Position numbers and translations under genes: made by a program
In this document: piece by piece, positions 1 through 19,703 of the stretch
Numbering within the stretch: position 1 is the first letter of the stretch
Layout of the letters: the number at the start of each line of letters is the position of its first letter
Notes under the pieces: generated by a model
What the model was told of the DNA's origin: nothing
The model's input: only the letters and a program-made list of their open reading frames with translations
Databases searched by the model: none
Assembly (NCBI GenBank): GCA_001779195.1
Contig: MFJL01000014.1
Span: forward strand, 9,522-73,521
Source: Candidatus Gottesmanbacteria bacterium RIFCSPHIGHO2_02_FULL_39_11
Lineage (GTDB): Bacteria > Patescibacteriota > Microgenomatia > 2-02-FULL-39-11
Length of the DNA: 64,000 nucleotides
Direction of reading: 5' to 3'

Positions 1-411
1 TGACAGTCCAAGACTTTCCGTCTGTTCATGAATAATAAATGGAATATTTAACAGGTAGCTCACAATTCCAATCGGAAAAGACACGTATCCCCCAAATGTG
101 ATCACACCGTCCGGATGTACTTTAAAAAAATAATAAAATGCCTGTATCAGTCCGATGGGTATTTTTAAAAGAGAAGTAAAAAAAGAAAGACCAAAATGCC
201 TTTCAAATCTTCCGGTTATTATGGAATAAAAAGGAATATTTAATTCTTTAATGGTTTTGTATTCCAAAGAAAGAGAAGAATCGCCTTCTAGAGGATGTAT
301 CCTCCCGACATAAGAGATTTTGCACGTCTCGTTATTTTTGTGCAGTTCTTCAATTACGGCAATTGCAGGGCTGAGATGTCCCCCCGCAATAAGAATTTTC
401 TTTTGTATCAT
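1..411 (-). CDS. murG: MurG, undecaprenyl-PP-MurNAc-pentapeptide GlcNAc transferase (N-terminal part; gene continues beyond the window start)
   Basis: I translated the reverse strand from the ATG at 409-411: MIQKKILIAGGHLSPAIAVIEEL..., a glycine-rich MurG N-terminus. It lies directly downstream of ftsW as in dcw clusters. It is absent from the ORF track because it runs off the window edge. Confidence 0.75.
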   Translation of the reverse strand, partial: MIQKKILIAGGHLSPAIAVIEELHKNNETCKISYVGRIHPLEGDSSLSLEYKTIKELNIPFYSIITGRFERHFGLSFFTSLLKIPIGLIQAFYYFFKVHPDGVITFGGYVSFPIGIVSYLLNIPFIIHEQTESLGLS

Positions 412-412
412 T

Positions 413-1516
413 TTATTTATTGTGCCGGCTTATGTTTAGCATTATACCAGCGGCACTCATGGAGATAAGTAGATGAGATCCCCCGTATGACACAAAGGGA
501 AGAGGAACTCCAGTTAAAGGCAAAAGAGCAACCATTGCACCTAAGTTGATAAAAATCTGCAAACCAAAATAACTTAATATTCCACATGAAAGAAGAAAGC
601 TGAACCGATCCTGTGTTTTTCTCACAATTAAAAACATCCTGTGCAAAAAAAATAGATAAAAAATTACAACCGTCGTTGTTCCGATAAATCCCAGTTCTTC
701 TCCGATAATGGCAAAAATAGAATCTGTGGTTGCCTCTGGCAAAAACTGATATTTTTGTCGGGAAGCTCCCAATCCCATTCCCCAAAAACCACCGGATCCA
801 AATGAAATTAAAATCTGTCTCAGATGGTAAGATTTGCCAAGCGGATCCTGGTTAGGATTTAAAAAGGTCATCATACGGTTGACCCGGTATGGAGAAATAA
901 CCGCAAGAAGAGACAAAACTGCAATAAGTATCGGCAGGAACATAGCAAATTGACGAACCGGTGCTCCGGAAACAAAATATAAGATAACAAACAAGAGACA
1001 CAATATAATTGCAGTCCCTAAATCCGGCTGTAAAACAACTAGCCCTACGATAACTCCCAAAAGAAGCAAAAAAGCTCTGAGTCTTTCCCGTTCTTTGAAA
1101 GAAAACCAGGCCGATAAGTAAATAATAAGTGCAAGTTTGGCAAGTTCAGAAGGCTGGAAACTAAAACTACCAAATCCGATCCACCGGTGTGCTCCCATTG
1201 TTTTTATTCCGATTCCTGGAATAAAAACAGCAATAAGGGTGAGGATCGCACCGACTAAAATAGGAATTGCCAATCGGTAATAGACTTTGTATGAAACCAG
1301 AGAAATTGCAAGCATGGAAAAAATTCCCAGGAAAAACCATACAGATTGCTCTTTTACGTAATGATACTTATCGGCAAAATCGCGGAATGCGGAAACATTT
1401 GAAGAATCAAAAATCATGAGGAGTCCGAAAAGTGAAAAAAGAATGACCGTTGCAAAAAGCCAAAAGTCCATTTTTCCTGTTGCTGTTGATTTTTTCAGAG
1501 AATGGGCGTTTCTCAT
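413..1516 (-). CDS. ftsW: SEDS-family peptidoglycan glycosyltransferase FtsW/RodA
   Basis: 367 aa and polytopic. It carries the SEDS motifs QPSELAKL, PDLGTA, LPEATTDSIF and GVPLPFVSYGGS, and sits in dcw context between mraY and murG. Confidence 0.9.
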   Translation of the reverse strand: MRNAHSLKKSTATGKMDFWLFATVILFSLFGLLMIFDSSNVSAFRDFADKYHYVKEQSVWFFLGIFSMLAISLVSYKVYYRLAIPILVGAILTLIAVFIPGIGIKTMGAHRWIGFGSFSFQPSELAKLALIIYLSAWFSFKERERLRAFLLLLGVIVGLVVLQPDLGTAIILCLLFVILYFVSGAPVRQFAMFLPILIAVLSLLAVISPYRVNRMMTFLNPNQDPLGKSYHLRQILISFGSGGFWGMGLGASRQKYQFLPEATTDSIFAIIGEELGFIGTTTVVIFYLFFLHRMFLIVRKTQDRFSFLLSCGILSYFGLQIFINLGAMVALLPLTGVPLPFVSYGGSHLLISMSAAGIMLNISRHNK

Positions 1517-1528
1517 AAGGAGAATTTA

Positions 1529-2566
1529 TTATTTCATAAAAGCAAACCACAAACCCAGTGTTGCTAAAAGAACTGAAAAAATCCAGGCACGAAAAACAAT
1601 AGTCGATTCATTCCAGCCCTTTTTTTGCCATAAGAGATGAAAGGGAGCAACTTCAAATAATTTTTTACCCCGATATTTTTTACTTAACAGCTGAAGAAGA
1701 GAAGTAAGAATTTCTAAAACATACAATCCTCCGACAACCAAAAGAGAAAAGGGTTTTCCCAAAAGAAGTCCGATAACCGCAAATGTTGCCCCGAAAGAGA
1801 GTGCTCCTACATCTCCCAAAAAAATACGGGCAGGGAAAATATTAAAATAAAGAAATGCAATAACGCCTCCGAGCCATATTGAAATAAAAACGGAAAGAGG
1901 GGTATCTAAAATCGAATGGGAGATTACCCAGAAAGCAGTCAGGGCAATCATAAGGATTCCGCATGAAAGACCATCTAGGCCATCTGATATATTAAACGCA
2001 TTGGCAAACGAGAGAATAACAAAAGAGGCAAATAAAATATATAGAATACCGACATCCCAAACGCCTATAAAGGGTACATTGATAATATGGATATGAAGCT
2101 CAGAATAGAGATAATACGCTGCTATAAGAGAGAGAAAAATCTGTAAGATGAGTTTATGCCGGAGACGAAGTCCGTAAAACTTCTGGTTTCCGGCAAAAAA
2201 AACTTTTCTCACATCATCATACAACCCTATTGCTCCAAATGAAACAAACGTAAACAGGAGTACTTTTATCTCGCTTCCCACATTGTTATATACGGAATGG
2301 ATGGGTATCCAAAAATAATAAAGAATCGGGAATGAAATAAAGAAAAGCAATGTTGTAACTGCAATTACAAGCATCCCGCCTCCTAAGGGGGTTCCTGATT
2401 TCTTCCCGTGAAATGAGTCAAAAATCGGAGTAGGCACATCAAATGCGTCTGTTGTTTTCTGATTTTGCCTCTGAAGTTTGGCATGATACAGGATGTTAAT
2501 AAAAGGGATAAGAGCAATAAAATGTACGATAAAAGAAAGTAATAAAAAACCTATTATAAATGCCAT
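1529..2566 (-). CDS. mraY: Phospho-N-acetylmuramoyl-pentapeptide transferase MraY
   Basis: 345 aa membrane protein with the motifs LYDDVRK, ANAFNISDGLDGL and IFLGDVGALSFG, in dcw context. The HHH motif is degenerate (PFHLLWQ). Confidence 0.85.
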   Translation of the reverse strand: MAFIIGFLLLSFIVHFIALIPFINILYHAKLQRQNQKTTDAFDVPTPIFDSFHGKKSGTPLGGGMLVIAVTTLLFFISFPILYYFWIPIHSVYNNVGSEIKVLLFTFVSFGAIGLYDDVRKVFFAGNQKFYGLRLRHKLILQIFLSLIAAYYLYSELHIHIINVPFIGVWDVGILYILFASFVILSFANAFNISDGLDGLSCGILMIALTAFWVISHSILDTPLSVFISIWLGGVIAFLYFNIFPARIFLGDVGALSFGATFAVIGLLLGKPFSLLVVGGLYVLEILTSLLQLLSKKYRGKKLFEVAPFHLLWQKKGWNESTIVFRAWIFSVLLATLGLWFAFMK

Positions 2567-2577
2567 AAATTTAAATT

Positions 2578-2949
2578 CTAGAACCCAAAAAGTACTAATA
2601 GTCTGGGAAGAAAAATAATAAGAGAAACCCCGATTGCTCCAAATGCAGTTGTAAGCATCATACCTGCCGCGACATCTTTAGCAATTTTTGCCTCTTTCCT
2701 CCACTCAATAGTAATTAAATCCGTCATTTCTTCAATTGAGGTATTTACCATCTCCGTCCCCAGTCCAAATGCAATTGTCATTATAACAACGGCAAACTCC
2801 CCTCTTGAGATTTTTAAAATAATACTTAGAACTAAGGCGACACAGGCAAGGAGCACATGTATCCTAAAATTCTGCTGTGTTTTTAATGCCCAAAACAATC
2901 CGGCAAAGGCGTTTTTAAAAGATAAGTGGTGTTTTTTGAGAAAATGCAT
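2578..2949 (-). CDS. Diacylglycerol/undecaprenol kinase (DgkA family)
   Basis: 123 aa with 3 TM segments and the DgkA-like motif EMVNTSIEEM. Confidence 0.65.
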   Translation of the reverse strand: MHFLKKHHLSFKNAFAGLFWALKTQQNFRIHVLLACVALVLSIILKISRGEFAVVIMTIAFGLGTEMVNTSIEEMTDLITIEWRKEAKIAKDVAAGMMLTTAFGAIGVSLIIFLPRLLVLFGF

Positions 2950-2976
2950 ACGTCTATTATACCTCTTTTCCCGGGT

Positions 2977-3966
2977 TTAATACCTTTTTTTGATTTTGCG
3001 AAATGACTCAACTGCAAGGGTAATAAGATACTTACGATTTACTGGAAGATCGTGAGCATGCATATATTCCAGAGAGTGTCCTCCGAATCCTTTCTTAAAC
3101 AAAGACAGCCCATACCAGGGATGAGTTTTTCGGTCCGTAGGAGCAATTCCCCAAAAATTATATATTTTTTTATTTCTTTTTCTTGCTTCTTTTATGGCTT
3201 CCCACTGAAGTAAGTAATTGACGGGAATTTTCTGGTCCACACTGGCGCTATGATGATAAACAGCCTGATTATTATAGAAAAGTATAAGAGCAGCAGACAA
3301 TAATTTTTTATCAAAATACCCCTTAAATAACAGAATCTGATCTTTTTTTAGAAATTCCATAAACTCATCGACAATCCCGGTATGCTTAGTAAATCCATGT
3401 CTGCTTGCGGTCATCTCATACAGAGTCATAAAATCTTCTAAATCTTTGGGATTTTTGCTTTTTTCGATTTTAACTCCTATTTTTTCCGCCTGACGGATAA
3501 GATACCGGGTGGTTTTGCGCATGCCGGAAAGCAGTTCTTCCTCGGATTTATCCACATTCAAAACCCAGCAATATTCCCCGTCCATGGCATGAATGGGTGA
3601 GGGTCTGAAATGGAAATCCTTAAACAGACGCTCGTTATATTCGGTGTTTGGAATAAGGGGACTCATTCTTATAAAATTTGCACGTTCTTTTTTGGCTAGT
3701 GAAATAAAATAATCAACCCAAATGGATAACGATTCCCTATCCCAGGATGAGAGTATGGGTCCGTGACGGATATGAAGAAATCTTCCGCGCCTGGCATCAA
3801 TTTTTGCGACCTGTGCAACAGAGGTTAATTTATCTTCGGAAAAATTTCCCAGTCTCCATGCTTTTTCGACGATCTCCCCCCAACTCCAGGATTGAAAAAG
3901 GGCAACAGGCGAGTGCTCCCGTATATATGCTTCCCAGTCATTTTCTGAACGTACTTCTTTAATCAT
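2977..3966 (-). CDS. FemAB/FemX-family peptidyltransferase (peptidoglycan interpeptide bridge formation)
   Basis: 329 aa. The N-terminus FQSWSWGEI and overall GNAT-like FemABX architecture match this family. It is embedded in the dcw operon. Confidence 0.6.
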   Translation of the reverse strand: MIKEVRSENDWEAYIREHSPVALFQSWSWGEIVEKAWRLGNFSEDKLTSVAQVAKIDARRGRFLHIRHGPILSSWDRESLSIWVDYFISLAKKERANFIRMSPLIPNTEYNERLFKDFHFRPSPIHAMDGEYCWVLNVDKSEEELLSGMRKTTRYLIRQAEKIGVKIEKSKNPKDLEDFMTLYEMTASRHGFTKHTGIVDEFMEFLKKDQILLFKGYFDKKLLSAALILFYNNQAVYHHSASVDQKIPVNYLLQWEAIKEARKRNKKIYNFWGIAPTDRKTHPWYGLSLFKKGFGGHSLEYMHAHDLPVNRKYLITLAVESFRKIKKRY

Positions 3967-5201
3967 ATTTCTTTCTTTAAGAGACTGATTACTCTCTCTA
4001 TATCATTTGGGGTCAGCCGAAAATAGGTAGGTAAATTTACTATGTGTCTTGAAACTGACTCAGCCCTAGGACAGCTTCCCAATTTATATCCGATACTCGT
4101 ATAGTCAACACCCGCCGGATCTACAACATGATGATACCAATTTCCAAGTACTATTTTCTTTTTCTTTGCACTGAGGATGACATTTGAAGCTTTATCCGTG
4201 ATAACGGGATACCTTAGATAAACTGCTCCAAAAACAGGTTTTAACTGATTTATTTTTGTAATGTCTTTTAAAGACTGGTAATACCTATTCGCTATTTCCA
4301 CTCTTTTATCATTGATCTGTTTTAATTTACTCAGCTGATACAGAAGAAGAGCCGCTAAAGCATTGGGATATTTTAAGGGGAAAACGCTTGGTCTTCCTCC
4401 TGTATATTCTTCTTTATAAACAGGCTTTGACAGCAAATGCAGTTTCAGCAAGATAAATAAAATAACTTTTCCAATAATGAAAGGATACAACGGCAATATG
4501 ATTGAAAAAAAAATGGGATGAACTATCTGTTGAAAAATCCAACCGTAGGAAGGAAAAGATAAGTCTTCATGCATCTTCTTTAAATTTTTTATCTCCGTTT
4601 TAAAATTTGGCTTAATAATTGCAAGTCCTCCAAAAACAGATGAAACAATTTTATCTCTGCCGAAACTGAAGAAGGCTGCGTCTCCGAAAGTACCCAATTT
4701 TCTATTTTCAACCGCAGCTCCCAGACAGTGGGCGCAGTCTTCAATAAGAATTAGATTATGTTTTTTAGCAATAACTGAAATTTCTTTAATTTGTGCAGGA
4801 ATTCCGAATGTATGTTGGACTATGATTGCACGGGTTTCAGATGTAATTTTTTTTTCAAGGTCTGTTGGGTCTACATTAAGTGTGCGATCAATATCAACAA
4901 ATACCGGCTTTACCCCGCACCAAAGAATAGCATCGCAAACTGCAACACAGGTGAATGCCTGAAGAATTACTTCATCGCCCTCTTTAATTTCGAATGATTT
5001 TAAAAGTGCATATAAAGCTGATCTTCCAGAGTTAAAAGATACCGAAGCACCTGCTGCATACTCATGTTTAAACCACGACTCGACTTTGCCGATTGCTGAG
5101 CCGTCTTTCCAGGACCACGGTGAAAACATTACTCTAACTGCTTCCTGTACGTCCTTTTTATCCGTATTGGGAGATAATGATATTGCAATTGGGTTATTCA
5201 T
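3963..5201 (-). CDS. DegT/DnrJ/EryC1/StrS-family PLP-dependent sugar aminotransferase with an inserted hydrophobic segment
   Basis: 412 aa. The PLP-lysine motif is FSFGRDK and the C-domain motif is KYPNALAALLLYQL. A roughly 45-aa hydrophobic insertion (IVHPIFFSIILPLYPFIIGKVILFILLKLHLL) lies between them. Confidence 0.7.
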   Translation of the reverse strand: MNNPIAISLSPNTDKKDVQEAVRVMFSPWSWKDGSAIGKVESWFKHEYAAGASVSFNSGRSALYALLKSFEIKEGDEVILQAFTCVAVCDAILWCGVKPVFVDIDRTLNVDPTDLEKKITSETRAIIVQHTFGIPAQIKEISVIAKKHNLILIEDCAHCLGAAVENRKLGTFGDAAFFSFGRDKIVSSVFGGLAIIKPNFKTEIKNLKKMHEDLSFPSYGWIFQQIVHPIFFSIILPLYPFIIGKVILFILLKLHLLSKPVYKEEYTGGRPSVFPLKYPNALAALLLYQLSKLKQINDKRVEIANRYYQSLKDITKINQLKPVFGAVYLRYPVITDKASNVILSAKKKKIVLGNWYHHVVDPAGVDYTSIGYKLGSCPRAESVSRHIVNLPTYFRLTPNDIERVISLLKKEI

Positions 5202-6805
5202 TTAATTTTTTTCAATAATAATTCCATCTGTCTTTTGGCTTCCCGGCCGCTGAAATAAATCATAATATCCTCTGTGTCATCAAACGGATAGAAATCCAAT
5301 TGTTTTTCATTTCTTAATATATATATTTTATCTTTTTTAATCCTTAAGAATTCTTCCGAATAATTTGAGTTTGTCAGAAAAATACGGTCACATGTTTTTT
5401 CTGCCTCTTTGCTGATTTCTTTATGAATAAATTTTCCCTCTTTATTTAATTCAATAAGGGGACTAAAAACAAACCATTTTTTCCCGTGAAATTGAGATAA
5501 GTATTTTAAGCCGGTTAATACTCCATCCGGATTTGAATTATAAGTATCATCAACTATATGTACTTTACCAAACTTTTTAAGCTTCATCCGATTATCAGGG
5601 AGCGATAAATTTGAAATACCCTGTGCAATATCAGTTAGACTTAATCCTAATTCTGCTGCAACGGAGGCGGATCCTGAGATATTTTGAATAAACTGCTCTC
5701 CGCCAAATGTTGTCACACAGGGAACACATTTCCCTTTCCAACACATTTCAAAAGATAAAGATTCTAATCCTGATTTAATATCTTTTATATCAACACTATT
5801 TTCTTTATTCTGAAGAGAATACCCTCCGTACCAATACTTTTTAATATCTTTCCTGTCCCTACTGACCCACTTGCCAATCTCAGTTAAAGGCTTGCTGCTA
5901 CTGTTTAGAAAAGCCATTCCATTTTGTTTAAGGCATATGAGCAATTCATACTTAGCTCTCATGGTATTTTCAATGGAGCCAAAGAGCTCAATATGCTCTT
6001 CGTTAATTCCGGTTAATACTCCGATTTGAGGATGAATCAAATTACAGAGAGTTTTTATCTCTCCTCTTTTATACGCTCCCATCTCGGCGATAAAAATTTG
6101 AATGTCGGGTGTAAGTTTTCTTAAAATCGTGTTGGCAATTCCGATTTCCGTGTTGTTTGTGCCTTCTGTCTTAAGAACACGGTATTTTTGAGACACGATA
6201 GTTGCTAAAAATTCCTTTGTAGTTGTCTTTCCAAAGCTTCCTGTAATTCCAATAACAACTAAGTTTGGAAAATTTTTAATTTTTTTATGAGCTTTATATA
6301 CGGTGTACTTTACATAGAGGAGACTTGGAATGGATGTAATTAATACAAGGAAACCAGAAAGAATAAATAAAAGATGGTCTAATAAAAATAGGAAAGAGAA
6401 AAAAAAGAAAAAAGATAATGACAATCCAACGAAAATAATTAGTAATCCAAAAATTAAGGTTAAGCTTCGAAAAGTAAATTTAGGTCTTTTAAAATTTTTA
6501 AATCCAAAAAATAAATTGACAACTATTATGAATTGTGTCAACAAGAAAAATAATATGGTTAAAGAAGGTAGATATAAAGGAGAAAAGAAAAATAAAATAA
6601 ATACTATCCATTTAAGAATAACGAAAGGATTTGCTAAAAATCTTTTTCCTTCTTCAGTATGAATGAAAGATACAATCCTGTCCCATCTGTATTCTTTCCT
6701 CTGCCATATATAAACGTTAAAAAGAATTAAGCGAATAAGATCGATGATGATAAGTGCATAAAAAATAGGGACAGAAATAGACACCAAGGTAAGGAAAAAA
6801 TCCAT
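5198..6805 (-). CDS. murF: UDP-MurNAc-tripeptide--D-Ala-D-Ala ligase MurF with an atypical N-terminal multi-TM domain
   Basis: 535 aa. The Mur ligase P-loop GITGSFGKTTTKE and the MurF C-terminal motif DDTYNSNPDG are present. The first ~180 aa are 4-5 hydrophobic helices, including an SFFFFFSFLF run. Confidence 0.85.
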   Translation of the reverse strand: MDFFLTLVSISVPIFYALIIIDLIRLILFNVYIWQRKEYRWDRIVSFIHTEEGKRFLANPFVILKWIVFILFFFSPLYLPSLTILFFLLTQFIIVVNLFFGFKNFKRPKFTFRSLTLIFGLLIIFVGLSLSFFFFFSFLFLLDHLLFILSGFLVLITSIPSLLYVKYTVYKAHKKIKNFPNLVVIGITGSFGKTTTKEFLATIVSQKYRVLKTEGTNNTEIGIANTILRKLTPDIQIFIAEMGAYKRGEIKTLCNLIHPQIGVLTGINEEHIELFGSIENTMRAKYELLICLKQNGMAFLNSSSKPLTEIGKWVSRDRKDIKKYWYGGYSLQNKENSVDIKDIKSGLESLSFEMCWKGKCVPCVTTFGGEQFIQNISGSASVAAELGLSLTDIAQGISNLSLPDNRMKLKKFGKVHIVDDTYNSNPDGVLTGLKYLSQFHGKKWFVFSPLIELNKEGKFIHKEISKEAEKTCDRIFLTNSNYSEEFLRIKKDKIYILRNEKQLDFYPFDDTEDIMIYFSGREAKRQMELLLKKIK

Positions 6806-6808
6806 ATG

Positions 6809-7525
6809 TTAAATAAATTTTTCTACTAATTTGTAAAATTCCTCAGCATTATTAAAAGGAATTCCGTGAGTTCCGTTTGAAATAACTTCAATATGAGAAT
6901 TAATAATTGTTTTTTTCATTTTTCTAGCAATAGAGACTGAAACCATAGAGTCGTCTTCTCCCCAAATCAAAAGTGTAGGGACTTTAATTTTTTTCATAAA
7001 AGGCTCTAAATCCTCCCGTATAACGGATTGAAACGTTTTTTTAAGATTCCCGTCAACTTTTAGATAATCTACGGATCCGCTTAATCGGTATAGTATTTTT
7101 TTAGAAATGGATGAAAAGATGTTTAAGATAGGAAAAGAGAAAATTAGTTTTCCGATTTTACTTAATATTAAGAACAGGTTCCGTTTAAAAGAATTGACCG
7201 GGACAAATCCGGGAGTTCCGGTTAGAACTAAGACAGACAGCCAATCCAGATCATTCCCGGCAAGAAGAATTCCCACTCTCCCTCCGAATGAATGCCCGAT
7301 AAGAACTGCTTTTTTGATTTTTTTCTCCCGGATAAAATTTTCTACATCAAGAGCGTAATCAGCCAAGCTCATCGGTCTATCTAACGGTTTATCCGGTTCA
7401 AATCCAGCAAAACCAAAAACATATGCCAGGTAACCTGCATAGTTAAAACGTTCTTTAAGATCAGTGTATCTGTTGGAACTAACTCTCCAGCCCGGAAGAA
7501 TAATAACACTTGGAAGTTTATCCAT
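6809..7525 (-). CDS. Alpha/beta-fold hydrolase (esterase/lipase-like)
   Basis: 238 aa with the nucleophile elbow GHSFGG. Confidence 0.6.
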   Translation of the reverse strand: MDKLPSVIILPGWRVSSNRYTDLKERFNYAGYLAYVFGFAGFEPDKPLDRPMSLADYALDVENFIREKKIKKAVLIGHSFGGRVGILLAGNDLDWLSVLVLTGTPGFVPVNSFKRNLFLILSKIGKLIFSFPILNIFSSISKKILYRLSGSVDYLKVDGNLKKTFQSVIREDLEPFMKKIKVPTLLIWGEDDSMVSVSIARKMKKTIINSHIEVISNGTHGIPFNNAEEFYKLVEKFI

Positions 7526-7527
7526 AA

Positions 7528-9294: not shown

Positions 9295-9297
9295 TTT

Positions 9298-10587: not shown

Positions 10588-10590
10588 ATT

Positions 10591-11925: not shown

Positions 11926-11927
11926 AG

Positions 11928-12914
11928 TTAAGGAATTATCACAACCTCAGGCTTTAGCCGGACATGATACTTACTGTAGACCTTGCGGGTTATTAACTGT
12001 ATCAATTGTACCATATCAGAGGATTTAGTTTGGGGCTCAACTACAATAAAATTGGCATGGTCAGAAGAGACTGAAGCTCCTCCAATTTTCGTTCCCTTAA
12101 GACCCAGGGAATCAATAAGATATCCGGCTGATGTCGTATATTGGGGAGTCGGAATACGCATGGCATCGCTTTTTTTAATATTTTGAAATGTGCATCCGGC
12201 CGAGAGTACTCCCCACGGCTGAGTGGTCCTGCGGTACTCGGTTACTCGGTTTCCTATTTCCCAAAGATTTTCTTTCTCAGAAGAGGTAAGAGTAATGATA
12301 ACGGAAAGAAGTACGTCTCCGCTTTTTTGAATGATGGATCTGTCATAGTCGAATTTAAAATAGCCTGCTCCAACTGACTTTATTTCTCCTCTGAGGGTTA
12401 GTATTTTAGCAGATCTAATTAAGTCTCCGAAAAAGGTTCCCCATTTCATATTATGTGCGTTCATATAAACAGCCCCGCCTACACTTCCCGGTTGTCCTAA
12501 AAATGTTTCAAGACCGCCAAGCCCCTGATCCAGGGTAAAACGCACTAGACGGTTGACTCCGACTCCGCTGTCGATTTCAAGATATACCGTTTTTTGAGAA
12601 TCTAAAATATCCCGCGCTTTTTTAATTCCCGTCATACCGATCATACGGATATCCTTGGTTTCATTTCTGATAACCAGTCCCTCAATTCCTGCATCTCCTA
12701 TCAGTACATTTGTCCCTCCTCCTAAAATAGTCCACGGAATTCCGATTTTTTGTGCGGATTTGACTGCCTGTGTAAGCTCACCTTGATTTTTAGCACTTAA
12801 AAAAAACTCAGCCGGTCCCCCGATTCTTAAAGTGGTATAAGAAGAAAGAAGTTCGCTTCGCTTAACGGTATTCGGAGCAACTAATTGTACAAGCTGACTA
12901 TATAAATCTTTCAT
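11928..12914 (-). CDS. murB: UDP-N-acetylenolpyruvoylglucosamine reductase MurB
   Basis: 328 aa with the FAD-binding motif TLRIGGPAEFF and a MurB C-terminal domain. Confidence 0.85.
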   Translation of the reverse strand: MKDLYSQLVQLVAPNTVKRSELLSSYTTLRIGGPAEFFLSAKNQGELTQAVKSAQKIGIPWTILGGGTNVLIGDAGIEGLVIRNETKDIRMIGMTGIKKARDILDSQKTVYLEIDSGVGVNRLVRFTLDQGLGGLETFLGQPGSVGGAVYMNAHNMKWGTFFGDLIRSAKILTLRGEIKSVGAGYFKFDYDRSIIQKSGDVLLSVIITLTSSEKENLWEIGNRVTEYRRTTQPWGVLSAGCTFQNIKKSDAMRIPTPQYTTSAGYLIDSLGLKGTKIGGASVSSDHANFIVVEPQTKSSDMVQLIQLITRKVYSKYHVRLKPEVVIIP

Positions 12915-14320
12915 GTTACCTGCACCCCTTTGTATATTTCATCCTGCCACGTGTTTATATCTCCGGCACCCATGGTAATAATAAGTTCTTTTTTTACCTC
13001 ATTATTTTTAATTCCCTTCACTGCATCTGTCGGACGGTTTACTAAATAGGCATTCTTACCATTTTTTACGAGCGCCGCAACAAGCATTTCAGAAGAAACA
13101 GATGTATCTTTTTCTTCCCGGGCAGATGCATAAATGGGGGCGATAAGTATTTTATCCGCCCAATCAAAAGACGTCAGAAACTGCTTAAAAAGTGATTTAG
13201 TACGTGAGTAAGTATGAGGTTGAAAAATGACAGTGATATAAAAATCCGGAAAAAACATGCGTGCCCCCGAGACGGTTGCCGCAATTTCAGTCGGATGATG
13301 AGCGTAATCATCATAGAATCTGAATTTACCCTTTTCTCTTATAAATTCAAAGCGTCTCCTGCTTCCTTTAAACTTTAAAATATTCTCAGATATTTCATCC
13401 CAGGAAAGTCCGACAGTACGACATACGAGACTTGCGGCTAATGAATTGAGGATATTATGCTTTCCCGTCAAATATGTTGATACCTGTGCTACTTTTGCGC
13501 CTGATTTTGTAATATCAAAAGTTGTTTTGCCTTTTTCAAATTTAAAACTACCCACTTGGTACATGGCATTTTTTGAAAATCCATAGGTAAGTATTTTCCC
13601 CTTATATTTTTTAAGGACTTTTAAAACCGAGTTATTATCGCAGCAGCCAATAAGAATTTTTTCACCTTTGAGGTTTTGCGTCAGTTTATAAAATGCATTT
13701 TCAATTTCGGAAACATCTGAATATGCGTCGGGATGATCATATTCAATATTGGTTATAACAAGTATTTCCGGATGCTGCCATAGAAAACGGGGAGTTGAGT
13801 CAAAGCCGGGAGATGTTATGTATTCATCCGCCTCTGCTATAAAATATTTTCCTCTCCCGTAATGTCCGGGTGCGGTAAGATCTAAAATATCTGAAGTACC
13901 AACAACATAGGAAGGATCACACCCCGCATGGGTTAGAATTGAAGCAACAAGTGCGCTTGTTGTTGTTTTTCCATGAGTTCCGGAAATCGAAATGCCGCAA
14001 TATTTTTTCATCTCTTCTCCTAAGGCCTGACCGTGCATAACAACCTTTAATCCTTTTTCTTTGGCTTCTTGCGCTTCACTATTTTTTATTCCTCCATGAG
14101 CACCTGTAACAACAACTAAATCATAATTTTTTGAAATATTCTTTTTGTCAAACCCCCTAACAACCGGAATATGAAATCGGGATAAGATCTTATCGGTGTG
14201 AAAAACGGCCTCGGTATCAGAACCCTTCACCGTGTACCCCTTTTCTTTAAAATAAATGGAAAGTGCCGTCATACCAACACCTTTAATGCCTACAAAATAA
14301 GCTGATTTTTTTTTCATCAT
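12911..14320 (-). CDS. murC: UDP-N-acetylmuramate--L-alanine ligase MurC
   Basis: 469 aa with the N-terminal YFVGIKGVGMTALS motif and the P-loop GTHGKTTTSAL. Confidence 0.9.
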   Translation of the reverse strand: MMKKKSAYFVGIKGVGMTALSIYFKEKGYTVKGSDTEAVFHTDKILSRFHIPVVRGFDKKNISKNYDLVVVTGAHGGIKNSEAQEAKEKGLKVVMHGQALGEEMKKYCGISISGTHGKTTTSALVASILTHAGCDPSYVVGTSDILDLTAPGHYGRGKYFIAEADEYITSPGFDSTPRFLWQHPEILVITNIEYDHPDAYSDVSEIENAFYKLTQNLKGEKILIGCCDNNSVLKVLKKYKGKILTYGFSKNAMYQVGSFKFEKGKTTFDITKSGAKVAQVSTYLTGKHNILNSLAASLVCRTVGLSWDEISENILKFKGSRRRFEFIREKGKFRFYDDYAHHPTEIAATVSGARMFFPDFYITVIFQPHTYSRTKSLFKQFLTSFDWADKILIAPIYASAREEKDTSVSSEMLVAALVKNGKNAYLVNRPTDAVKGIKNNEVKKELIITMGAGDINTWQDEIYKGVQVT

Positions 14321-14976
14321 ATAAAACCGATAATATTATTAAGGATATTTGGCTGTAATCCCTCCCGCCGGTAAGACCAAAGATTTTTGTTGGTATAGGT
14401 ACATATGGAAAGACAATCAATATTAGACCTGAGTAGTCTTTCATCTTTCATTTGTTTTAATGCAATACTTTCCAGGTTTAAAAACCATTTTCCTCCTCTT
14501 TCTTCTGAAATCTCATTTTTAAGAAATCCCAAGTGGCAAAAAATGGAAACTCTCTCCTGTGGAACATCATAGCAGCATATCCGTATATGAGGGCCGATTG
14601 CGGCATAAATATTTTGGGGGTGAGATCCTATTTTTTTCATCATTTGTATGGTACTCGTTACAATTTTTTTTGATAAGCCTTTCCAGCCCGCATGAACAGC
14701 ACCTGCTATTTTCAGTTTGGGATCATATAAAAATATCGGAATGCAGTCTGCGGTTTTAACACCGCTCCATCCTTTTCCTTTTAAGATAATTCCATCTGTG
14801 CCGTTTAACGGATTCGTTTTTGAGTTCTCTAAAACCACATTTCCTGAATGAATTTGCCTAAGATGGATAAAATTTGATTCGCTTCCTTTAATATTTAATG
14901 AGGAAAGAGATTCTCCTTTTGAGAGAAATGCGTGAAAAAACTCAGGAAATTTCTTAATAAGCTCAGATTGGATCAT
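14317..14976 (-). CDS. pgeF: Peptidoglycan editing factor PgeF / YfiH (DUF152, laccase-domain) family
   Basis: 219 aa with the motifs QIHSGNVV, KTADCIPIF, AAVHAGWKGL and IGPHIRICCYDV. Confidence 0.8.
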   Translation of the reverse strand: MIQSELIKKFPEFFHAFLSKGESLSSLNIKGSESNFIHLRQIHSGNVVLENSKTNPLNGTDGIILKGKGWSGVKTADCIPIFLYDPKLKIAGAVHAGWKGLSKKIVTSTIQMMKKIGSHPQNIYAAIGPHIRICCYDVPQERVSIFCHLGFLKNEISEERGGKWFLNLESIALKQMKDERLLRSNIDCLSICTYTNKNLWSYRREGLQPNILNNIIGFI

Positions 14977-16214
14977 ATTCTTTTTCCCAGCGCTTTTTGA
15001 ACCGTTTTTCTTTCATCCCAGCCGTATTCTTTAGTACCAAAGCACATGGACTTTTCATGTCCCTTTCCGCAGAAAAACACAATATCATCCGGTTTTGCCA
15101 GAGTATTAATGGTAAAATCAATCGCTTCGCTCCTGTCGGGAATTCTGAAAAAATAATTTATTTTTTTCGCACGCCTTCTTATTTTTGCACTTTTGCGCAA
15201 CTCCACCATACCTTTGCATGCGGCACCGTTTGCAATCTGACGGATAATTTCCTTAACATCCTCAGTCCTCGGATCCTCTGCCGTAAAGACAGCAAAATCG
15301 GAATAAGTTGCAGCAATCTCTCCCATCATGGATCTTTTTTCCGTATCCCGAAGACCGGCACACCCAAAAACTACAATAACTTTCCTCTTTGTTATATCCC
15401 GTGCGGTAAGCAAAACTTTTTTAAGCGCATCGGGTTTATGAGCAAAATCAATAACTATTTTAAATCCTCGCCGGTTGGGTACTTCCTCCATCCGTCCGGG
15501 GAGGGTAATAAAATTTTTAATTGCTTTTTCTATTGTTTTTACATCTATGCCGTACACTAAAGATACGGCTGCTCCCGCCAGTGCATTTTCTTCATTAAAC
15601 TCCCCTGGAAAGTTAAGCTTTATTTTTAATGTTGACGGATTTACTGACGCATTTTTGCTTTTTCCGAATGTTACTAACTTACCTTTTACTTTACTCTTAA
15701 GATACTGAAAGTTGCGATCATCATAATTTAGTATACTCACCCGGTTATTTTTCAAAATCTTTTCTTTTGCCTCCCTGTATTTTCCAAAAGTACGGTGATA
15801 ATCCAAATGCTCATGAGTAATATTGGTAATAACTCCTGCGTCAATTGGGATCCCCAAAGTGCGGTACTGATCCAAAGCATGAGAGGTAACTTCTAAAACT
15901 ACATACTCCGTTTGAAATTTGAGCGCTTTTTTCAGAAGTTTTTGCAGATGGTAAGAGGAGGGGGTAGTTACATGCAAACCGGTATCAATCGTTTCACCGT
16001 TAATAACGGCTGAAATGGTAGAAATGAGTGCAACTTTTTTTCCGGCAGATTTAAATATTTCATACACAAGGTGAGCAGTTGTTGTCTTCCCGGATGTCCC
16101 GGTAATTCCGATAATTTTTATCCGTTTAGCAGGAAACCCATACAAAACAACTGCCGCAACCGCCCGTATAAAATGTCCGGCGTTTTTAATTTTTCTTACT
16201 AGATATGATTCCAT
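14973..16214 (-). CDS. murE: UDP-MurNAc-L-Ala-D-Glu--diamino acid ligase MurE (short N-terminal domain)
   Basis: 413 aa. It has GITGTSGKTTT, VTTPSSYHLQKLL...LEVTSHALDQYR, DFAHKPDALKKVL and GCAGLRDTEKR. These are MurE-type signatures, not MurD or MurF. Confidence 0.85.
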   Translation of the reverse strand: MESYLVRKIKNAGHFIRAVAAVVLYGFPAKRIKIIGITGTSGKTTTAHLVYEIFKSAGKKVALISTISAVINGETIDTGLHVTTPSSYHLQKLLKKALKFQTEYVVLEVTSHALDQYRTLGIPIDAGVITNITHEHLDYHRTFGKYREAKEKILKNNRVSILNYDDRNFQYLKSKVKGKLVTFGKSKNASVNPSTLKIKLNFPGEFNEENALAGAAVSLVYGIDVKTIEKAIKNFITLPGRMEEVPNRRGFKIVIDFAHKPDALKKVLLTARDITKRKVIVVFGCAGLRDTEKRSMMGEIAATYSDFAVFTAEDPRTEDVKEIIRQIANGAACKGMVELRKSAKIRRRAKKINYFFRIPDRSEAIDFTINTLAKPDDIVFFCGKGHEKSMCFGTKEYGWDERKTVQKALGKRI

Positions 16215-16266
16215 TTATCTTAGTATTGTACCTGAAAATGCAAAATTAGGCTATTTTGAGGAAAAC

Positions 16267-17955
16267 TCAGCCTCCCGAGCTGGGTGATATCCCATAGTAA
16301 GAAAAGAGCTCTTTGGCGATGTTAAAAAAAGTGGGAGCTGCAGTTTCGGACCCCCACTGGGACGTAGAGGGCTCGTTAATGGTGACAAGCATTATAAACT
16401 TCGGATTGTCAACCGGTGCAAACCCCACAAAAGAGGCAATTGTTTTAGTCGGATCATAATGTCCCGCGATGGGTATCTGAGCCGTACCCGTCTTTCCGGC
16501 AATATTAAACCCGGCTGGCTTAAGCCTATGTGCCTCTCCATCATCAACTGCATGCACCATTATCTGAGCAATTTTTGTTGCTGTCTCCTTTTTAAAAACA
16601 GTTCTTATAACGGTGGGCTTCATTTCAATTTCTCTTCCGTTTGAGAGTTTTATCTTTTTAACAAGATAGGGTTTGACCAGTTTTCCTCCGTTGGCAATCG
16701 AAGCAACCGCCCGAACCATCTGAAGAGGAGTTACGGCAATTCCCTGTCCAAATGAAGCAGTAGCAAAATCAATCTGACGCCACTCCCGACCGGAGCGAAT
16801 TGCCGGAGATGACTCATCCTGAAGATCGATATCCGTATTTTCTCCAAATCCAAGATTTTTTATATAGGAAAGAAGTTTTTCACCCCCCAATTTACTTTGA
16901 GCAAAAACCATACCTACATTTGAGGAGTGAACCAGGACATCTGTCATAGAGGTGTAAGGACCATTATACTGGTTATTCCACGTCCTTATGGTATATCCTC
17001 CTATGTTTACCGGTCCATCCTCGTTATAGGTAGTATCGGGTGTGAGTACTCCTTCATTTATCGCAGCTGCCATTACCAAAACCTTAAATGTAGATCCCGG
17101 CTCATAGGAAGACCCTACAACTGAATTGATATAAAACTCTGCAGGATAGTTACCATAATCTGTCGGATCATAAGAAGGATAGGAAACCATACCAAGTATA
17201 GCTCCCGTTTGCGGCTCCATAATAGTTACGGTCCCGCCTTTTGCCTGGTATTCTTCAATGCTTTCCTTAAGCTTTGCTTCAGCTATATATTGAACTGTTT
17301 TATCAATTGTTAAGTATAAATCCCGCCCGTCTTCACTGGGAAGTTCGCTCATTTTTTCAAGCAAAATGGGATTTCCTATAGCATCTTTTTCTTGCTTTAT
17401 CATTCCGTCCCTTCCCCTTAATTGTTCATCATAAAATCCTTCCAGCCCGAAATATCCCTGATCCAAACCTTTTGAATTCTTTCCTACAAATCCAATAATA
17501 TTGGCGGCCATGGATCCTTCGGGATAATACCTATTCGACTCCTCCAAAAACCCGAGTCCTGGTATGGTACTACTTTCTAATTTTTTTATTTTATCTTCGC
17601 TAATTTTGTTAACCAAGGGAGTCCAATTAGAAAGACTGTTACTGAGCTTTCCCGAAAGGGTGGACTCAGGAATTGTCAAAACACCTGATAGTGATTTTAT
17701 GAGATCTGTTTGGTTTTTAATTTTATCCTTTTCTACAAATACCATATACCCCTTGCGGTTCATCACAATGGCCGCTCCATCAGACGAAAAAATTCTTCCC
17801 CTTTTGGCATAAATTGAGCTCGCATGCACGGTTTGATCATCAGCAATTCCTTTTAATCTGTCAAAAGAGAGAATTTGCCAGTAGAAAAGCCGGGCGATAA
17901 CCGCCATAAATCCGAGAACAAAGACGATAAAAACGACGTAGATTCTTTTATGCAT
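16267..17955 (-). CDS. ftsI: Penicillin-binding protein, class B transpeptidase FtsI/PBP2
   Basis: 562 aa with an N-terminal TM anchor and the transpeptidase motifs STFK, SSN and KTGTA. Confidence 0.9.
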   Translation of the reverse strand: MHKRIYVVFIVFVLGFMAVIARLFYWQILSFDRLKGIADDQTVHASSIYAKRGRIFSSDGAAIVMNRKGYMVFVEKDKIKNQTDLIKSLSGVLTIPESTLSGKLSNSLSNWTPLVNKISEDKIKKLESSTIPGLGFLEESNRYYPEGSMAANIIGFVGKNSKGLDQGYFGLEGFYDEQLRGRDGMIKQEKDAIGNPILLEKMSELPSEDGRDLYLTIDKTVQYIAEAKLKESIEEYQAKGGTVTIMEPQTGAILGMVSYPSYDPTDYGNYPAEFYINSVVGSSYEPGSTFKVLVMAAAINEGVLTPDTTYNEDGPVNIGGYTIRTWNNQYNGPYTSMTDVLVHSSNVGMVFAQSKLGGEKLLSYIKNLGFGENTDIDLQDESSPAIRSGREWRQIDFATASFGQGIAVTPLQMVRAVASIANGGKLVKPYLVKKIKLSNGREIEMKPTVIRTVFKKETATKIAQIMVHAVDDGEAHRLKPAGFNIAGKTGTAQIPIAGHYDPTKTIASFVGFAPVDNPKFIMLVTINEPSTSQWGSETAAPTFFNIAKELFSYYGISPSSGG

Positions 17956-18290
17956 TATCGCGTTTTGTATGCAAGAGGGCTCTCCGTAGTTAATGTAACC
18001 AATTGTGTATTTGACAAAAAGCCGGATTCAGATGCTTTTTGCGATACCGAAGAAAGAGCTGAAAATGAGGCAATTTCCTGATCCAGGTCTACAATTTCGG
18101 CGCTGTATTTATTTATTTCCCTGTTTAAAAGAGTCAGTTTTTCTCCGCTGGTTGAGTCATGATTTAAAATAATAACCTGAAGTACAGAAAGACCGATAAT
18201 TAGACAAACCAGTATTGAATTTATTAAAATAAATTTTTTTCTCCCCAACGAAGCATTATTATGACGATAATACTGGGCAGTATATTCCAT
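17955..18290 (-). CDS. ftsL: Cell division protein FtsL-like (small bitopic coiled-coil protein)
   Basis: 111 aa with a single TM (FILINSILVCLIIGLSVLQVIIL) followed by a coiled-coil-like segment. Its position between rsmH and ftsI fits FtsL. Confidence 0.5.
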   Translation of the reverse strand: MEYTAQYYRHNNASLGRKKFILINSILVCLIIGLSVLQVIILNHDSTSGEKLTLLNREINKYSAEIVDLDQEIASFSALSSVSQKASESGFLSNTQLVTLTTESPLAYKTR

Positions 18291-18319
18291 TTTAAATGTA
18301 AAGTGAAAAGCTGTTAGTC

Positions 18320-19222
18320 TTAAATTTTTTGGGCAACTCTCAGTTTTGCCGAGTGCGCTCTTTTATTTTGTTTTACCTCGTTATAATCAGCTTGTATCGG
18401 TCTTTTTGTAACAATTTCTAATCTTCCACCTTCCTCTTCTCTTTTAAAAAACCTTTTTACGATCCGATCCTCAAGTGAATGAAAGCTAATTACTGCAATT
18501 CTTCCGTTTGGATTTAACAGATTGATTGCATCACCTAATGCCTCTTTTAATGCTTCCAATTCTCCGTTTACCTCAATTCTTAGTGCCTGGAAAATCCGGG
18601 CAAGTGTGGCTGTTTTATTGGGATGTTCTTTTTTCAGTACGCTTTCAATAATTTCACTTAATTCCTTCGTCGTTCTAATTTCTGATTTTTTTATGGAACG
18701 GGCGCGAATAACAGCATCAGCAATTGCCCTAGAATTGAGTTCTTCAGCATTTTGTGCAAACAGTTCATATAATCTCTCACTTCTGTAATGATTTATAACA
18801 TCATAAGCAGTCGTTTTACCCTTTTTACTCATTCTCATGTCTAATTCCTCGTCCTTATGGAAACTAAATCCCCGTCCGGAAGAATCGATTTGAAAACTTG
18901 AAACTCCCAGATCAAATAAAATTCCATCAACTCTTTCAAATCCGTTTTCGCGAGCAATCTTTTCAATATTTCTAAAATTTCCTTCACAAATGATTAAGTT
19001 CCTGTTTATATTTTCTTCACGCGCTCTTTTTTTAACATACGTTATTGCTTCTTCATCCTGATCAATCCCAAGTACTTTTCCTCCTCTTTTTATAATTTCC
19101 AGACTGTGTCCGCCTCCTCCGAGTGTTGCATCTATATACTTCTTACCCGGCACAATGCTTAGTAAGTCCAAAACCTTAGTTAACAGAACCGGTGTATGAA
19201 ATGAATTTAGAATCATAGGCAT
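18320..19222 (-). CDS. rsmH: 16S rRNA (cytosine1402-N4)-methyltransferase RsmH (MraW)
   Basis: 300 aa with the motifs DATLGGGGHS and GGRIAVISFHSLEDRIVK. Confidence 0.9.
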   Translation of the reverse strand: MPMILNSFHTPVLLTKVLDLLSIVPGKKYIDATLGGGGHSLEIIKRGGKVLGIDQDEEAITYVKKRAREENINRNLIICEGNFRNIEKIARENGFERVDGILFDLGVSSFQIDSSGRGFSFHKDEELDMRMSKKGKTTAYDVINHYRSERLYELFAQNAEELNSRAIADAVIRARSIKKSEIRTTKELSEIIESVLKKEHPNKTATLARIFQALRIEVNGELEALKEALGDAINLLNPNGRIAVISFHSLEDRIVKRFFKREEEGGRLEIVTKRPIQADYNEVKQNKRAHSAKLRVAQKI

Positions 19223-19250
19223 TGTGATTCTAAACCGTTATTAATTTTTA

Positions 19251-19643
19251 TCACTGTAACTTATCTCTGTATTCTTCCCAGTTAGTCTTATCCCATATTT
19301 CAAAATGATCCCCGGCACCTATTACAAGCACACTCTCTTTCATTTCAGAACGTTTCACCATACGCTCTGGCATCACAAATCTTCCCTGTGAATCAAGTTT
19401 TATAATTTCAGCTTCAGAAAAAGTCTTTCTTCTGATATCCCGAGCCTCTTTGTCATAAAACACAGATCGAGATAATATATCTTTAGAACCTTCCTCCCAT
19501 TCTTTTTCTTTATAGCCGAGTACGCATTCCTCAAATCCTACCGTCAAAACAAAGCGCTCTCCTCCCAGTTCTTTTCTAATCTTAATTGGAAGCGCTATTC
19601 GATTCGTATCTGTAACATTTATCTCAAAAGTACCAAGAAACAT
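19251..19643 (-). CDS. mraZ: Transcriptional regulator MraZ
   Basis: 130 aa and the first gene of the dcw operon. It has duplicated MraZ domains with an N-terminus MFLGTFEINVTDTNRIALP. Confidence 0.85.
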   Translation of the reverse strand: MFLGTFEINVTDTNRIALPIKIRKELGGERFVLTVGFEECVLGYKEKEWEEGSKDILSRSVFYDKEARDIRRKTFSEAEIIKLDSQGRFVMPERMVKRSEMKESVLVIGAGDHFEIWDKTNWEEYRDKLQ

Positions 19644-19674
19644 ATAATTTCACCATTTACCACCATCTATTTCC

Positions 19675-19703
19675 ATATTGCGACAGGAATTGTCATCTGT
19701 CAA
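19675..19703 (-). promoter_or_regulatory. Predicted sigma70-type promoter of the mraZ/dcw operon
   Basis: On the minus strand there is a perfect TTGACA (19698-19703), a 17-bp spacer and CAATAT (19675-19680), about 30 nt upstream of the mraZ ATG. Confidence 0.45.

Follow-up and report, generated by a model that had tools for sequence, protein, structure and literature searches.

An enlarged division and cell wall (dcw) gene cluster in a Candidatus Gottesmanbacteria lineage and its probable organization in nested transcription units

We analysed a 64000-nt stretch of contig MFJL01000014.1 (positions 9522–73521, hereafter the window) from the metagenome-assembled genome of Candidatus Gottesmanbacteria bacterium RIFCSPHIGHO2_02_FULL_39_11, a very small groundwater bacterium of the Candidate Phyla Radiation (CPR), and focused on the string of peptidoglycan and cell-division genes that occupies one of its ends. 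We consider it quite probable that this string is part of an enlarged, lineage-specific dcw cluster of 22 genes, organized as nested co-directional expression units, with the genes missing from it placed by default elsewhere in the genome. In the best-supported view, the cluster brings together the supply of sugar nucleotides, the committed steps of peptidoglycan synthesis, most of the ligases, a proof-reading factor, a probable undecaprenol kinase, the membrane steps and the divisome.

Open reading frame (ORF) listing combined with Pfam and NCBIfam analysis gave 19 consecutive co-directional genes on the minus strand (19643 to 1), in the transcription order mraZ, rsmH, an ftsL-like gene, a penicillin-binding protein (PBP) gene, murE, pgeF, murC, murB, murA, a glmU-like gene, glmS, an α/β-hydrolase gene (abH), murF, degT, a FemAB-family gene (femX), dgkA, mraY, ftsW and murG. 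The window ends within murG. On the same contig (locus L001) the full gene encodes 372 residues and is followed by ftsQ (with a POTRA domain), ftsA and ftsZ, which bring the cluster from mraZ to ftsZ to a total of 22 genes. An IS200/IS605-type Y1 transposase gene on the opposite strand directly after ftsZ (L001 15584–16255) marks the 3′ boundary of the cluster, and beyond it lie ileS, a second SEDS (rodA-like) gene, rplU and rpmA.

In transcription order, the 18 junctions between the 19 genes measured 28, 29, −1, 52, −4, −4, −4, 2, 3, 3, 2, 3, −4, −4, 27, 11, 12 and 1 nt (negative values are overlaps). The original prediction of 19 same-strand genes separated by no more than 52 bp was therefore correct, but its description of the junctions as mostly 4-bp overlaps was not, as only five of the 18 are of this kind; one is a 1-bp overlap, six are gaps of 1–3 nt and six are gaps of 11–52 nt. 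All junctions in the block from murE to femX lie between −4 and +3 nt, with murF, degT and femX joined via 4-bp overlaps, and such tight or overlapping junctions suggest translational coupling inside the blocks. The Pfam and NCBIfam matches also agreed at the family level with the identities first proposed for glmS, the glmU-like gene, murA, murB, PgeF, DgkA, the FemAB and DegT proteins and the α/β-hydrolase, as well as with the non-canonical order murE-pgeF-murC-murB-murA-glmU-glmS-...-murF-...-mraY-ftsW-murG.

Gene order was then compared across 80 genome loci surrounding glmU-like homologues, the ORFs of which were mapped onto the window proteins (loci are numbered with the prefix L). This comparison with related taxa supported the arrangement, as the window order recurs in approximately 30 related loci at 30–60% protein identity. 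The shared order is mraZ-rsmH-ftsL-pbp-murE-pgeF-murC-murB-murA-glmU-[glmS]-abH-murF-degT-[MBL]-femX-dgkA-mraY-[murI-murD]-ftsW-murG-ftsQ-ftsA, in which brackets mark genes present in some loci and MBL denotes a metallo-β-lactamase-fold protein. Median junctions across the loci were at most 22 nt, except for those between an upstream 151-residue ORF (hyp151) and mraZ (156 nt), between the PBP gene and murE (40 nt), between femX and dgkA (41 nt) and between the MBL gene and femX (126 nt, a poorly delimited junction); junctions that skip a gene left unassigned by the search also exceeded 22 nt. An exact look-up of the FtsW protein found the identical arrangement on five independently assembled contigs (ENA and Logan samples). 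Since 54 of the 57 window ORFs are on the minus strand, the same-strand run alone is unremarkable here. What goes beyond chance is the functional coherence of the genes, 17 of the 19 belonging to one pathway or process, together with the conservation of their order at 30–60% identity, whereas the neighbouring regions differ among relatives. Thus the arrangement is a conserved lineage trait and not an accident of strand bias.

The genes for UDP-N-acetylglucosamine (UDP-GlcNAc) synthesis have indeed been drawn into the dcw cluster, as had been proposed, although to different extents. The glmU-like gene is embedded among mur genes in 35 of the 80 loci and unlinked to them in the other 45; in Daviesbacteria and other CPR or archaeal loci it stands alone or beside glmS only. 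The presence of glmS inside the cluster is confined to the clade of the window, apart from two distant loci that have it at another position. The glmU-like protein, which is 100% identical with A3D77_02255, a protein from a Rifle-site genome of Candidatus Gottesmanbacteria, had its best match in an archaeal-type model and scored 89.5 against the bacterial GlmU model TIGR01173 (cut-off 366.85), so that both GlmU cut-offs were missed; the expected domain architecture, an NTP_transferase domain plus a left-handed β-helix, is present. In 24 loci abH, a constant partner of murF, immediately precedes that gene, and it also precedes murF-ddl in an unrelated CPR lineage. In 25 loci the gene just upstream of mraY is dgkA, the median gap being 10 nt. 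By analogy with Gram-positive DgkA, the dgkA product is probably an undecaprenol kinase.

At its start, the cluster carries a candidate MraZ-regulated promoter. The promoter originally placed at ~19.7 kb was found there as TTGACA-N17-CAATAT followed by ATGGTG repeats with a 10-nt period, and a TTGACA hexamer with a 17–18-nt spacer and a cAtTAT-type −10 element occurs upstream of mraZ in 24 of 29 loci. The interval from the −10 element to the mraZ ATG contains, in most relatives, two to four RTGGK boxes repeated at a period of exactly 10 nt. Known MraZ operators are direct repeats with helical periodicity downstream of the promoter; by analogy, MraZ presumably binds the ATGGTG repeats and would control its own promoter. 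Directly upstream of this promoter lies hyp151 (window 19784–20239), the product of which has a hydrophobic segment at its N terminus and matches no family; it is kept in position upstream of mraZ in at least nine relatives, and glyS-hyp151 precede mraZ in many relatives.

Two further promoter-like elements were conserved inside the cluster. Before murE, a −10 element with at least five of six matches to TATAAT was present in 20 of 26 loci, and in 18 of the 26 it had the extended form TGnTAnnnT; before dgkA, a −10-like element was present in 23 of 25 loci. At the other junctions, which served as background, a −10 match was seen in 10–57% of loci with no more than five extended forms. The two elements coincide with the two widest internal junctions and, being so near the ATG, imply mRNAs that are leaderless or have very short leaders. 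A terminator scan of positions 1–20000 gave 12 sites compared with 17.6 expected from shuffled sequences and no convincing terminator; a weak hairpin overlaps the end of the PBP gene (16282–16268). No glmS ribozyme or other Rfam element was matched at E≤1 in positions 1–24000, the glmU–glmS gap being 3 nt, and a tRNA scan of the region found none.

Taken together, these motifs suggest the following layout. An MraZ-controlled promoter at ~19.70 kb would drive the start of the cluster, conserved short-leader or leaderless promoters directly before murE (~16.23 kb) and dgkA (~2.96 kb) would add internal starts, and read-through would contribute in addition, with no convincing terminator between the promoters. 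Most likely, therefore, at least three nested co-directional units with read-through are predicted, as in other dcw clusters, and we infer that the cluster genes are co-transcribed within this layout. The dcw clusters of Escherichia coli and Bacillus subtilis contain several internal promoters. A single transcript from one promoter, as first proposed with a length of ~19.7 kb, appears unlikely on the evidence of the conserved internal −10 elements.

Compared with the canonical dcw cluster (mraZ to ftsZ in E. coli and the B. subtilis equivalent), the present cluster shares the mraZ-rsmH-ftsL-ftsI start behind an MraZ-type promoter, the ftsQ-ftsA-ftsZ end, the genes murE, murF, mraY, ftsW, murG and murC, a co-directional arrangement and, probably, internal promoters with read-through. 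The ftsL-like gene, weakly matched, is in its canonical position between rsmH and the PBP gene. The order differs: it is canonically murE-murF-mraY-murD-ftsW-murG-murC-(murB)-ddl, whereas here murC, murB and murA follow murE-pgeF, and murF lies far from murE. Furthermore, the canonical cluster has all four Mur ligase genes (murC, murD, murE and murF) and ddl, whereas murD and ddl are lacking here; pgeF, murA, the glmU-like gene, glmS, abH, degT, femX and dgkA are extra, and MurE and MurF lack their usual N-terminal domain. A 17-gene dcw cluster termed ‘complete’, with murA and murB, has been described, for example in Acetohalobium arabaticum (Halanaerobiales), in a study from which CPR bacteria were explicitly excluded (PMC8871954). 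It provides a precedent for recruitment of the first committed steps through murA and murB, but it has murD and ddl and is without glmS, glmU, pgeF, dgkA, degT and femX. We found no literature precedent for glmS, glmU, dgkA, degT or femX in a dcw cluster, the CPR-including survey of Megrian et al. 2022 not being covered, and none on Gottesmanbacteria peptidoglycan genes, a membrane-anchored MurF or a DegT-FemX pair. Relative to the usual dcw gene set, the cluster has taken in the first committed steps (murA and murB), the supply of sugar nucleotides (glmS and the archaeal-type glmU-like gene), a MurC proof-reading factor (pgeF), a probable lipid-carrier kinase (dgkA) and an accessory set around murF consisting of the α/β-hydrolase, the DegT aminotransferase and the FemAB transferase.

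The cluster does not encode the whole cytoplasmic pathway, contrary to the original prediction. Analysis with Pfam and NCBIfam found murD, ddl, murI and glmM neither in the 22-gene cluster nor in any of the 57 larger ORFs of the window, and no alanine racemase was seen in the scans of cluster and window ORFs. The steps left unsupplied in the cluster are the addition of D-glutamate (D-Glu), the synthesis of D-alanyl-D-alanine (D-Ala-D-Ala) and the conversion of glucosamine 6-phosphate into glucosamine 1-phosphate. Thus the earlier statement that murD, ddl and ftsQAZ are absent from the window held for murD and ddl, but the absence of ftsQAZ was an edge effect, as these genes lie directly beyond base 1.

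NCBIfam scans of the unassigned ORFs in relatives, followed by re-mapping, distinguished three versions of the cluster. Loci L022 and L073 have glmU-ddl-murF(soluble)-MBL-dgkA-mraY-murI-murD-ftsW, and a large sister group (L044, L049, L067, L078, L084 and others) has glmU-abH-murF(membrane)-degT-MBL-femX-dgkA-mraY-murI-murD-ftsW. The window's clade (L006–L018) has glmU-glmS-abH-murF(membrane)-degT-femX-dgkA-mraY-ftsW, with no murI-murD and no ddl. The MBL gene, for a GloB-like hydrolase (L022 13696–14391 and orthologues), is recurrent near murF in sister lineages, either between degT and femX or after murF, and is absent from the window's clade. In sister lineages murI-murD lie between mraY and ftsW. 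Here mraY and ftsW are separated by a clean 12-nt gap, and several separate branches of the tree have lost the pair from this slot. In some sister lineages ddl adjoins murF, and that slot is occupied here by degT-femX. Among 26 loci, the slot between glmU/glmS and dgkA held degT and femX only in 22, ddl only in three, both in none and neither in one (Fisher P=0.0015), a P value that overstates the evidence since only two independent swap events underlie it.

The history of this slot was clearest in L009 and L086, which are nested in the window's clade in a neighbour-joining tree of MurA, MurB and GlmU, yet carry abH-murF-ddl. The L009 abH, MurF and Ddl proteins are 42%, 43% and 58% identical respectively to those of a Parcubacteria-type module and are closer to it than to the genes of their own clade, indicating replacement of the whole module. 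Close relatives of the L009 Ddl number only two, and each of them occupies this slot; its remaining matches are 55–60% identical and, where named, belong to Parcubacteria lineages or unclassified Patescibacteria, which suggests that ddl of the L009 type was horizontally transferred. The Parcubacteria-type module (L087/L088, L009 and L086) resembles the set in the window in that abH immediately precedes the gene for a membrane-anchored MurF devoid of the usual N-terminal domain and, in L009 and L086, in that it occupies the slot of abH-murF-degT-femX. It differs in its third member, Ddl instead of DegT plus FemX, and in a membrane domain with approximately two hydrophobic segments compared with approximately five here. 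Other relatives suggest that absence from the cluster is not absence from the genome: the clusters of L053, L071 and L051 retain murD but have no murI, even though D-Glu is required by MurD, and the L051 cluster is without murF and ddl altogether. Ligase genes have been lost from further clusters, as L068 is without murE, murF and murD, L046 and L026 are without murF, and both the ddl and the degT modules are missing from L051. Judged from these gene complements, the peptidoglycan gene content of the cluster looks unusually fluid in this group.

Two of the ligases, MurE and MurF, are unusual. MurE aligns with its model only from profile position ~89 and with Thermotoga maritima MurE (PDB code 4bub) only from residue 86, so that domain 1 is absent, and only 52 nt separate the PBP stop codon from murE. 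All MurE orthologues have ~390–420 residues, and the N-terminal domain is absent in every relative, including those with murD and ddl. We considered whether this 413-residue ligase might instead be MurD or MurT and rejected both, as it scored above the cut-off of the MurE model, only 102 bits with MurD and no match to MurT. A proposal that MurC is an Mpl-type recycling ligase bypassing MurD and MurE was likewise rejected, the murC model giving 396 bits (above its cut-off) compared with 185 for mpl (cut-off 388.7).

MurF aligns with its model from profile position 66 and with T. maritima MurF from residue 72, and the match thus covers the protein from the central domain onward. Residues 1 to ~175 form a five-helix membrane domain that replaces the N-terminal domain (hydrophobic region, residues 1–166). 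An AlphaFold (AF2) model built from a 41-sequence alignment had a predicted local distance difference test score (pLDDT) of 92.4, and its nearest folds in Foldseek were MurF structures (E=2×10−27, ~380 aligned columns). The motif W-Q-x-K-E-Y-R-x-D-R at MurF residues 34–43 (window 6676–6705) is invariant in the 41 homologues and is placed by the model at the end of helix 1 and in the loop after it; it is a candidate for a substitute binding site in place of the lost N-terminal domain. Among 1.84 billion cluster representatives the membrane domain has 92 relatives, in which it is always N-terminal, the full-length proteins having ~490–565 residues. The Parcubacteria-type MurF, paired with Ddl, has a shorter membrane segment and a similar LQLENYxxGRF motif. 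A resemblance to MurT of the MurT/GatD lipid II amidotransferase lies in a Mur-ligase fold without the N-terminal nucleotide-binding domain, and MurT/GatD was among the fold matches to the MurF model. MurT differs in that it amidates lipid II, has a DUF1727 C-terminal domain and lacks the five-helix membrane domain seen here. Of the proteins here, one scores above the NCBIfam cut-off for MurE and the other is MurF-like by score. The resemblance is a lead and not a sign of membership.

The DegT protein has an invariant pyridoxal phosphate (PLP)-lysine motif, SFGRDK (SFxxxK), in 23 orthologues, all of which also carry a hydrophobic insertion of ~45 residues (WIxQQLxHP...LPxYN..IGK) after this motif (residues ~215–260, window 4425–4560). 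We found no description of such an insertion for DegT-family enzymes. The relatives of the protein in the PDB are sugar aminotransferases matched over the N-terminal half only, and none of the specific equivalog models (PseC, ArnB, WecE and others) reached its cut-off. The best PDB matches of the FemAB protein were Staphylococcus aureus FemX (6snr) and Weissella FemX, both of very weak similarity (E=3×10−14 and 1×10−8), and it scored 42.7 bits with the FemX equivalog NF047883 (UDP-MurNAc-pentapeptide:L-Ala transferase; cut-off 500). It belongs to the same Pfam family as FemX of Weissella viridescens and S. aureus and, at ~330 residues, has no coiled-coil insert, as in Weissella FemX; beyond the weak similarity, it differs in that its gene overlaps degT by 4 bp and occupies the ddl slot.

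Several explanations compete with an enlarged cluster of nested units under selection. That the adjacency arose without selection, as a by-product of gene density and strand bias in a reduced genome of ~1 Mb, would fit the prevalence of minus-strand ORFs and the short intergenic gaps throughout, but we regard it as very improbable: the order is kept in approximately 30 genomes in which the flanks differ, and the separation of the glmU-like gene from mur genes in more than half of the loci shows that the linkage is lineage-specific and not automatic. The origin of the contig in a metagenome-assembled genome raises the question of an assembly or binning artefact, or a chimaeric contig; the five independent assemblies, the dozens of genomes from other studies and the lack of any break in GC content or GC skew across the cluster make this extremely improbable. 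A different question is whether all the genes form one polycistronic operon of ~20–23 kb served by the mraZ promoter only, in which UDP-GlcNAc synthesis would be co-transcribed with lipid II synthesis and division. Their common direction, the short gaps, terminator-like sites no more frequent than by chance and a strong, conserved mraZ promoter are all in its favour. We nevertheless think it quite unlikely, given −10 elements, often of the extended form TGnTATAAT, before murE in 77% and before dgkA in 92% of relatives, and the established internal promoters of the E. coli and B. subtilis clusters.

As for the missing genes, we regard the ordinary reading as probable: other parts of the genome would carry murD, murI, ddl and glmM, and DegT-FemX would add decorations or branches to the stem peptide. 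The alternative is a non-canonical stem peptide in the window's clade, in which DegT and FemAB would displace the Ddl step and make a unit for addition by the membrane-anchored MurF, possibly on an intermediate bound to the membrane, with murI-murD truly lost. Support for it comes from the mutually exclusive occupancy of the slot by degT-femX or ddl, the replacement of the whole module in L009, the 4-bp overlaps that join murF, degT and femX, the clean gap at the murI-murD slot with loss of the pair there in several branches, and the missing N-terminal domain of MurE and MurF, as in MurT, which works on lipid II. Several points speak against it. The absence of ddl, murD and murI is known from the cluster and window only, and the swap happened in only two independent events. 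The membrane-anchored MurF also co-occurs with Ddl (L009 and L087), and thus its transmembrane domain is not tied to DegT-FemX; the truncated MurE is likewise found in a cluster with murD, murI and ddl (L022). FemAB enzymes acylate amines and cannot directly extend a C-terminus, DegT-family enzymes are known for sugar substrates, and the PBP has kept intact SxxK (STFK), SxN (SSN) and KTG motifs, implying a conventional donor of the D-Ala-D-Ala type. On balance we hold the non-canonical route to be doubtful, and the same applies to its component proposal that the DegT/FemAB/membrane-MurF trio may be a functional replacement for MurF plus Ddl, swapped in and out of the slot at least twice.

The enlarged, nested dcw cluster with its missing genes elsewhere in the genome, which we prefer, has points of its own to answer. 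The placement of murD, murI and ddl elsewhere is a default assumption, and when a MurD profile built from ten Gottesmanbacteria sequences was compared with 5.8 billion proteins, the best 120 of the 7998 matches below 10−30 were all of the sister-clade type, with none from window-type genomes. The mutual exclusivity of ddl and degT-femX in the same slot argues that DegT-FemX are more than decoration. With regard to expression, the mraZ and internal promoters are sequence motifs backed by conservation; the −10 element of the window's own mraZ promoter matches the consensus at only three of six positions, its murE element TACAAT is without the TG extension, and a generic promoter scan of positions 1–20000 gave 62 sites compared with 56.9 in shuffled sequences, which is not above expectation. 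All of these weigh against our interpretation and are reflected in the strength with which we state it.

The coordinates of the genes and regulatory elements are collected in Table 1. Proteins of the cluster are deposited at NCBI under accessions OGG16255–16264, with MurE, the MurF-like ligase, the DegT aminotransferase and the FemAB transferase recorded as ‘hypothetical protein’.

Table 1 Genes and candidate regulatory elements of the cluster within the window, in transcription order (model scores in bits)
Feature	Position	Strand	Evidence or remark
−35 hexamer TTGACA, mraZ promoter	19698..19703	−	Perfect TTGACA, N17/18, nAnnnT
−10 hexamer CAATAT, mraZ promoter	19675..19680	−	Spacer 17 nt; relatives mostly CATTAT or CAATAT
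Two direct ATGGTG repeats, 10-nt period, candidate MraZ operator	19651..19666 (19666–19661 / 19656–19651)	−	
mraZ	19251..19643	−	PF02381, 94.7
rsmH (mraW), 16S rRNA methyltransferase	18320..19222	−	PF01795, 308
ftsL-like, small bitopic protein	17955..18290	−	FtsL_Actino, E=0.0024 (weak, sole family match); one hydrophobic segment, residues 18–46
Class B PBP (FtsI/SpoVD-like transpeptidase)	16267..17955	−	PF00905, 255, and PF03717
Internal −10-like element TACAAT	16225..16230	−	10 nt upstream of murE ATG
murE, without N-terminal (UDP-binding) domain	14973..16214	−	TIGR01085, 363.6 (cut-off 257.3)
pgeF, peptidoglycan editing factor family	14317..14976	−	PF02578, 149.5; TIGR00726, 138.8 (cut-off 141.15)
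murC	12911..14320	−	TIGR01082, 396 (cut-off 335)
murB	11928..12914	−	TIGR00179, 171 (cut-off 144.5)
murA	10591..11925	−	TIGR01072, 443.8 (cut-off 392.7)
glmU-like, bifunctional nucleotidyltransferase/acetyltransferase, archaeal type	9298..10587	−	TIGR03992, 243.2 (cut-off 292.1), best match
glmS	7528..9294	−	TIGR01135, 601 (cut-off 418)
abH, α/β-hydrolase	6809..7525	−	Pfam Hydrolase_4 and Abhydrolase_1; GHSFGG nucleophile elbow
murF, membrane-anchored	5198..6805	−	TIGR01143, 216.2 (cut-off 288.6); PF08245 and PF02875
degT, DegT/DnrJ/EryC1-family PLP aminotransferase	3963..5201	−	PF01041, 212.7 (cut-off 19.8)
femX, FemAB-family (FemX-like) aminoacyl-tRNA-dependent transferase	2977..3966	−	PF02388, 118 (cut-off 24)
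Internal −10 element TATAAT	2956..2961	−	6 nt upstream of dgkA ATG
dgkA-family small membrane kinase	2578..2949	−	PF01219, 100
mraY	1529..2566	−	PF00953, 104.8; TIGR00445, 165 (cut-off 192)
ftsW (SEDS)	413..1516	−	TIGR02614, 358.8 (cut-off 337.5)
murG, N-terminal 137 codons, gene cut by window edge	1..411	−	PF03033; start at 411

The rest of the window outside the cluster also holds glyS and recO. A strong promoter-like site, TTGACA-16 nt-TATTAT, lies on the minus strand at window ~21840–21870, directly upstream of the TTG start of glyS. From 24365 to 63870 the window is a near-uninterrupted minus-strand surface-glycan island, which encodes a priming sugar transferase, a nucleotidyltransferase, at least 17 glycosyltransferases (GT1/2/4/10/11), a 1047-residue Wzy_C protein, a flippase and PMT_2, DUF2079 and DUF4012 proteins; GC content falls to 0.33–0.35 between 42 and 56 kb. 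Between glycosyltransferase genes of the island lie argG and argH (argininosuccinate synthase and lyase, 28446–31050), an odd setting for amino acid metabolism. The cumulative GC skew falls monotonically over the window which, with the minus-strand bias of its ORFs, is consistent with a single replichore in which the genes are co-oriented with replication.

The dcw cluster is among the most conserved gene arrangements of bacteria and has been used to reason on the cell envelope of early bacteria. CPR bacteria for the most part resist cultivation, which leaves gene order as one of the few ways into the biology of their cell walls. The present cluster indicates that a dcw cluster is able to grow by absorbing sugar-nucleotide supply and lipid-carrier recycling, and that a regulatory layout, here a MraZ promoter with internal promoters, may be read from conservation alone. 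Within one CPR class, three genes that are normally essential leave the cluster, those for MurD, MurI and Ddl, whose steps are held to be universal; the DegT/FemAB pair and the unusual architectures of MurE and MurF appear in the same class. If murD, murI and ddl were truly absent from these genomes, this would point to a new route to the peptidoglycan precursor and offer a concrete target for biochemistry. If the missing genes simply lie elsewhere, the finding amounts to a variant, well documented and specific to this lineage, of a known cluster, and the public records now named ‘hypothetical protein’ can be annotated properly.

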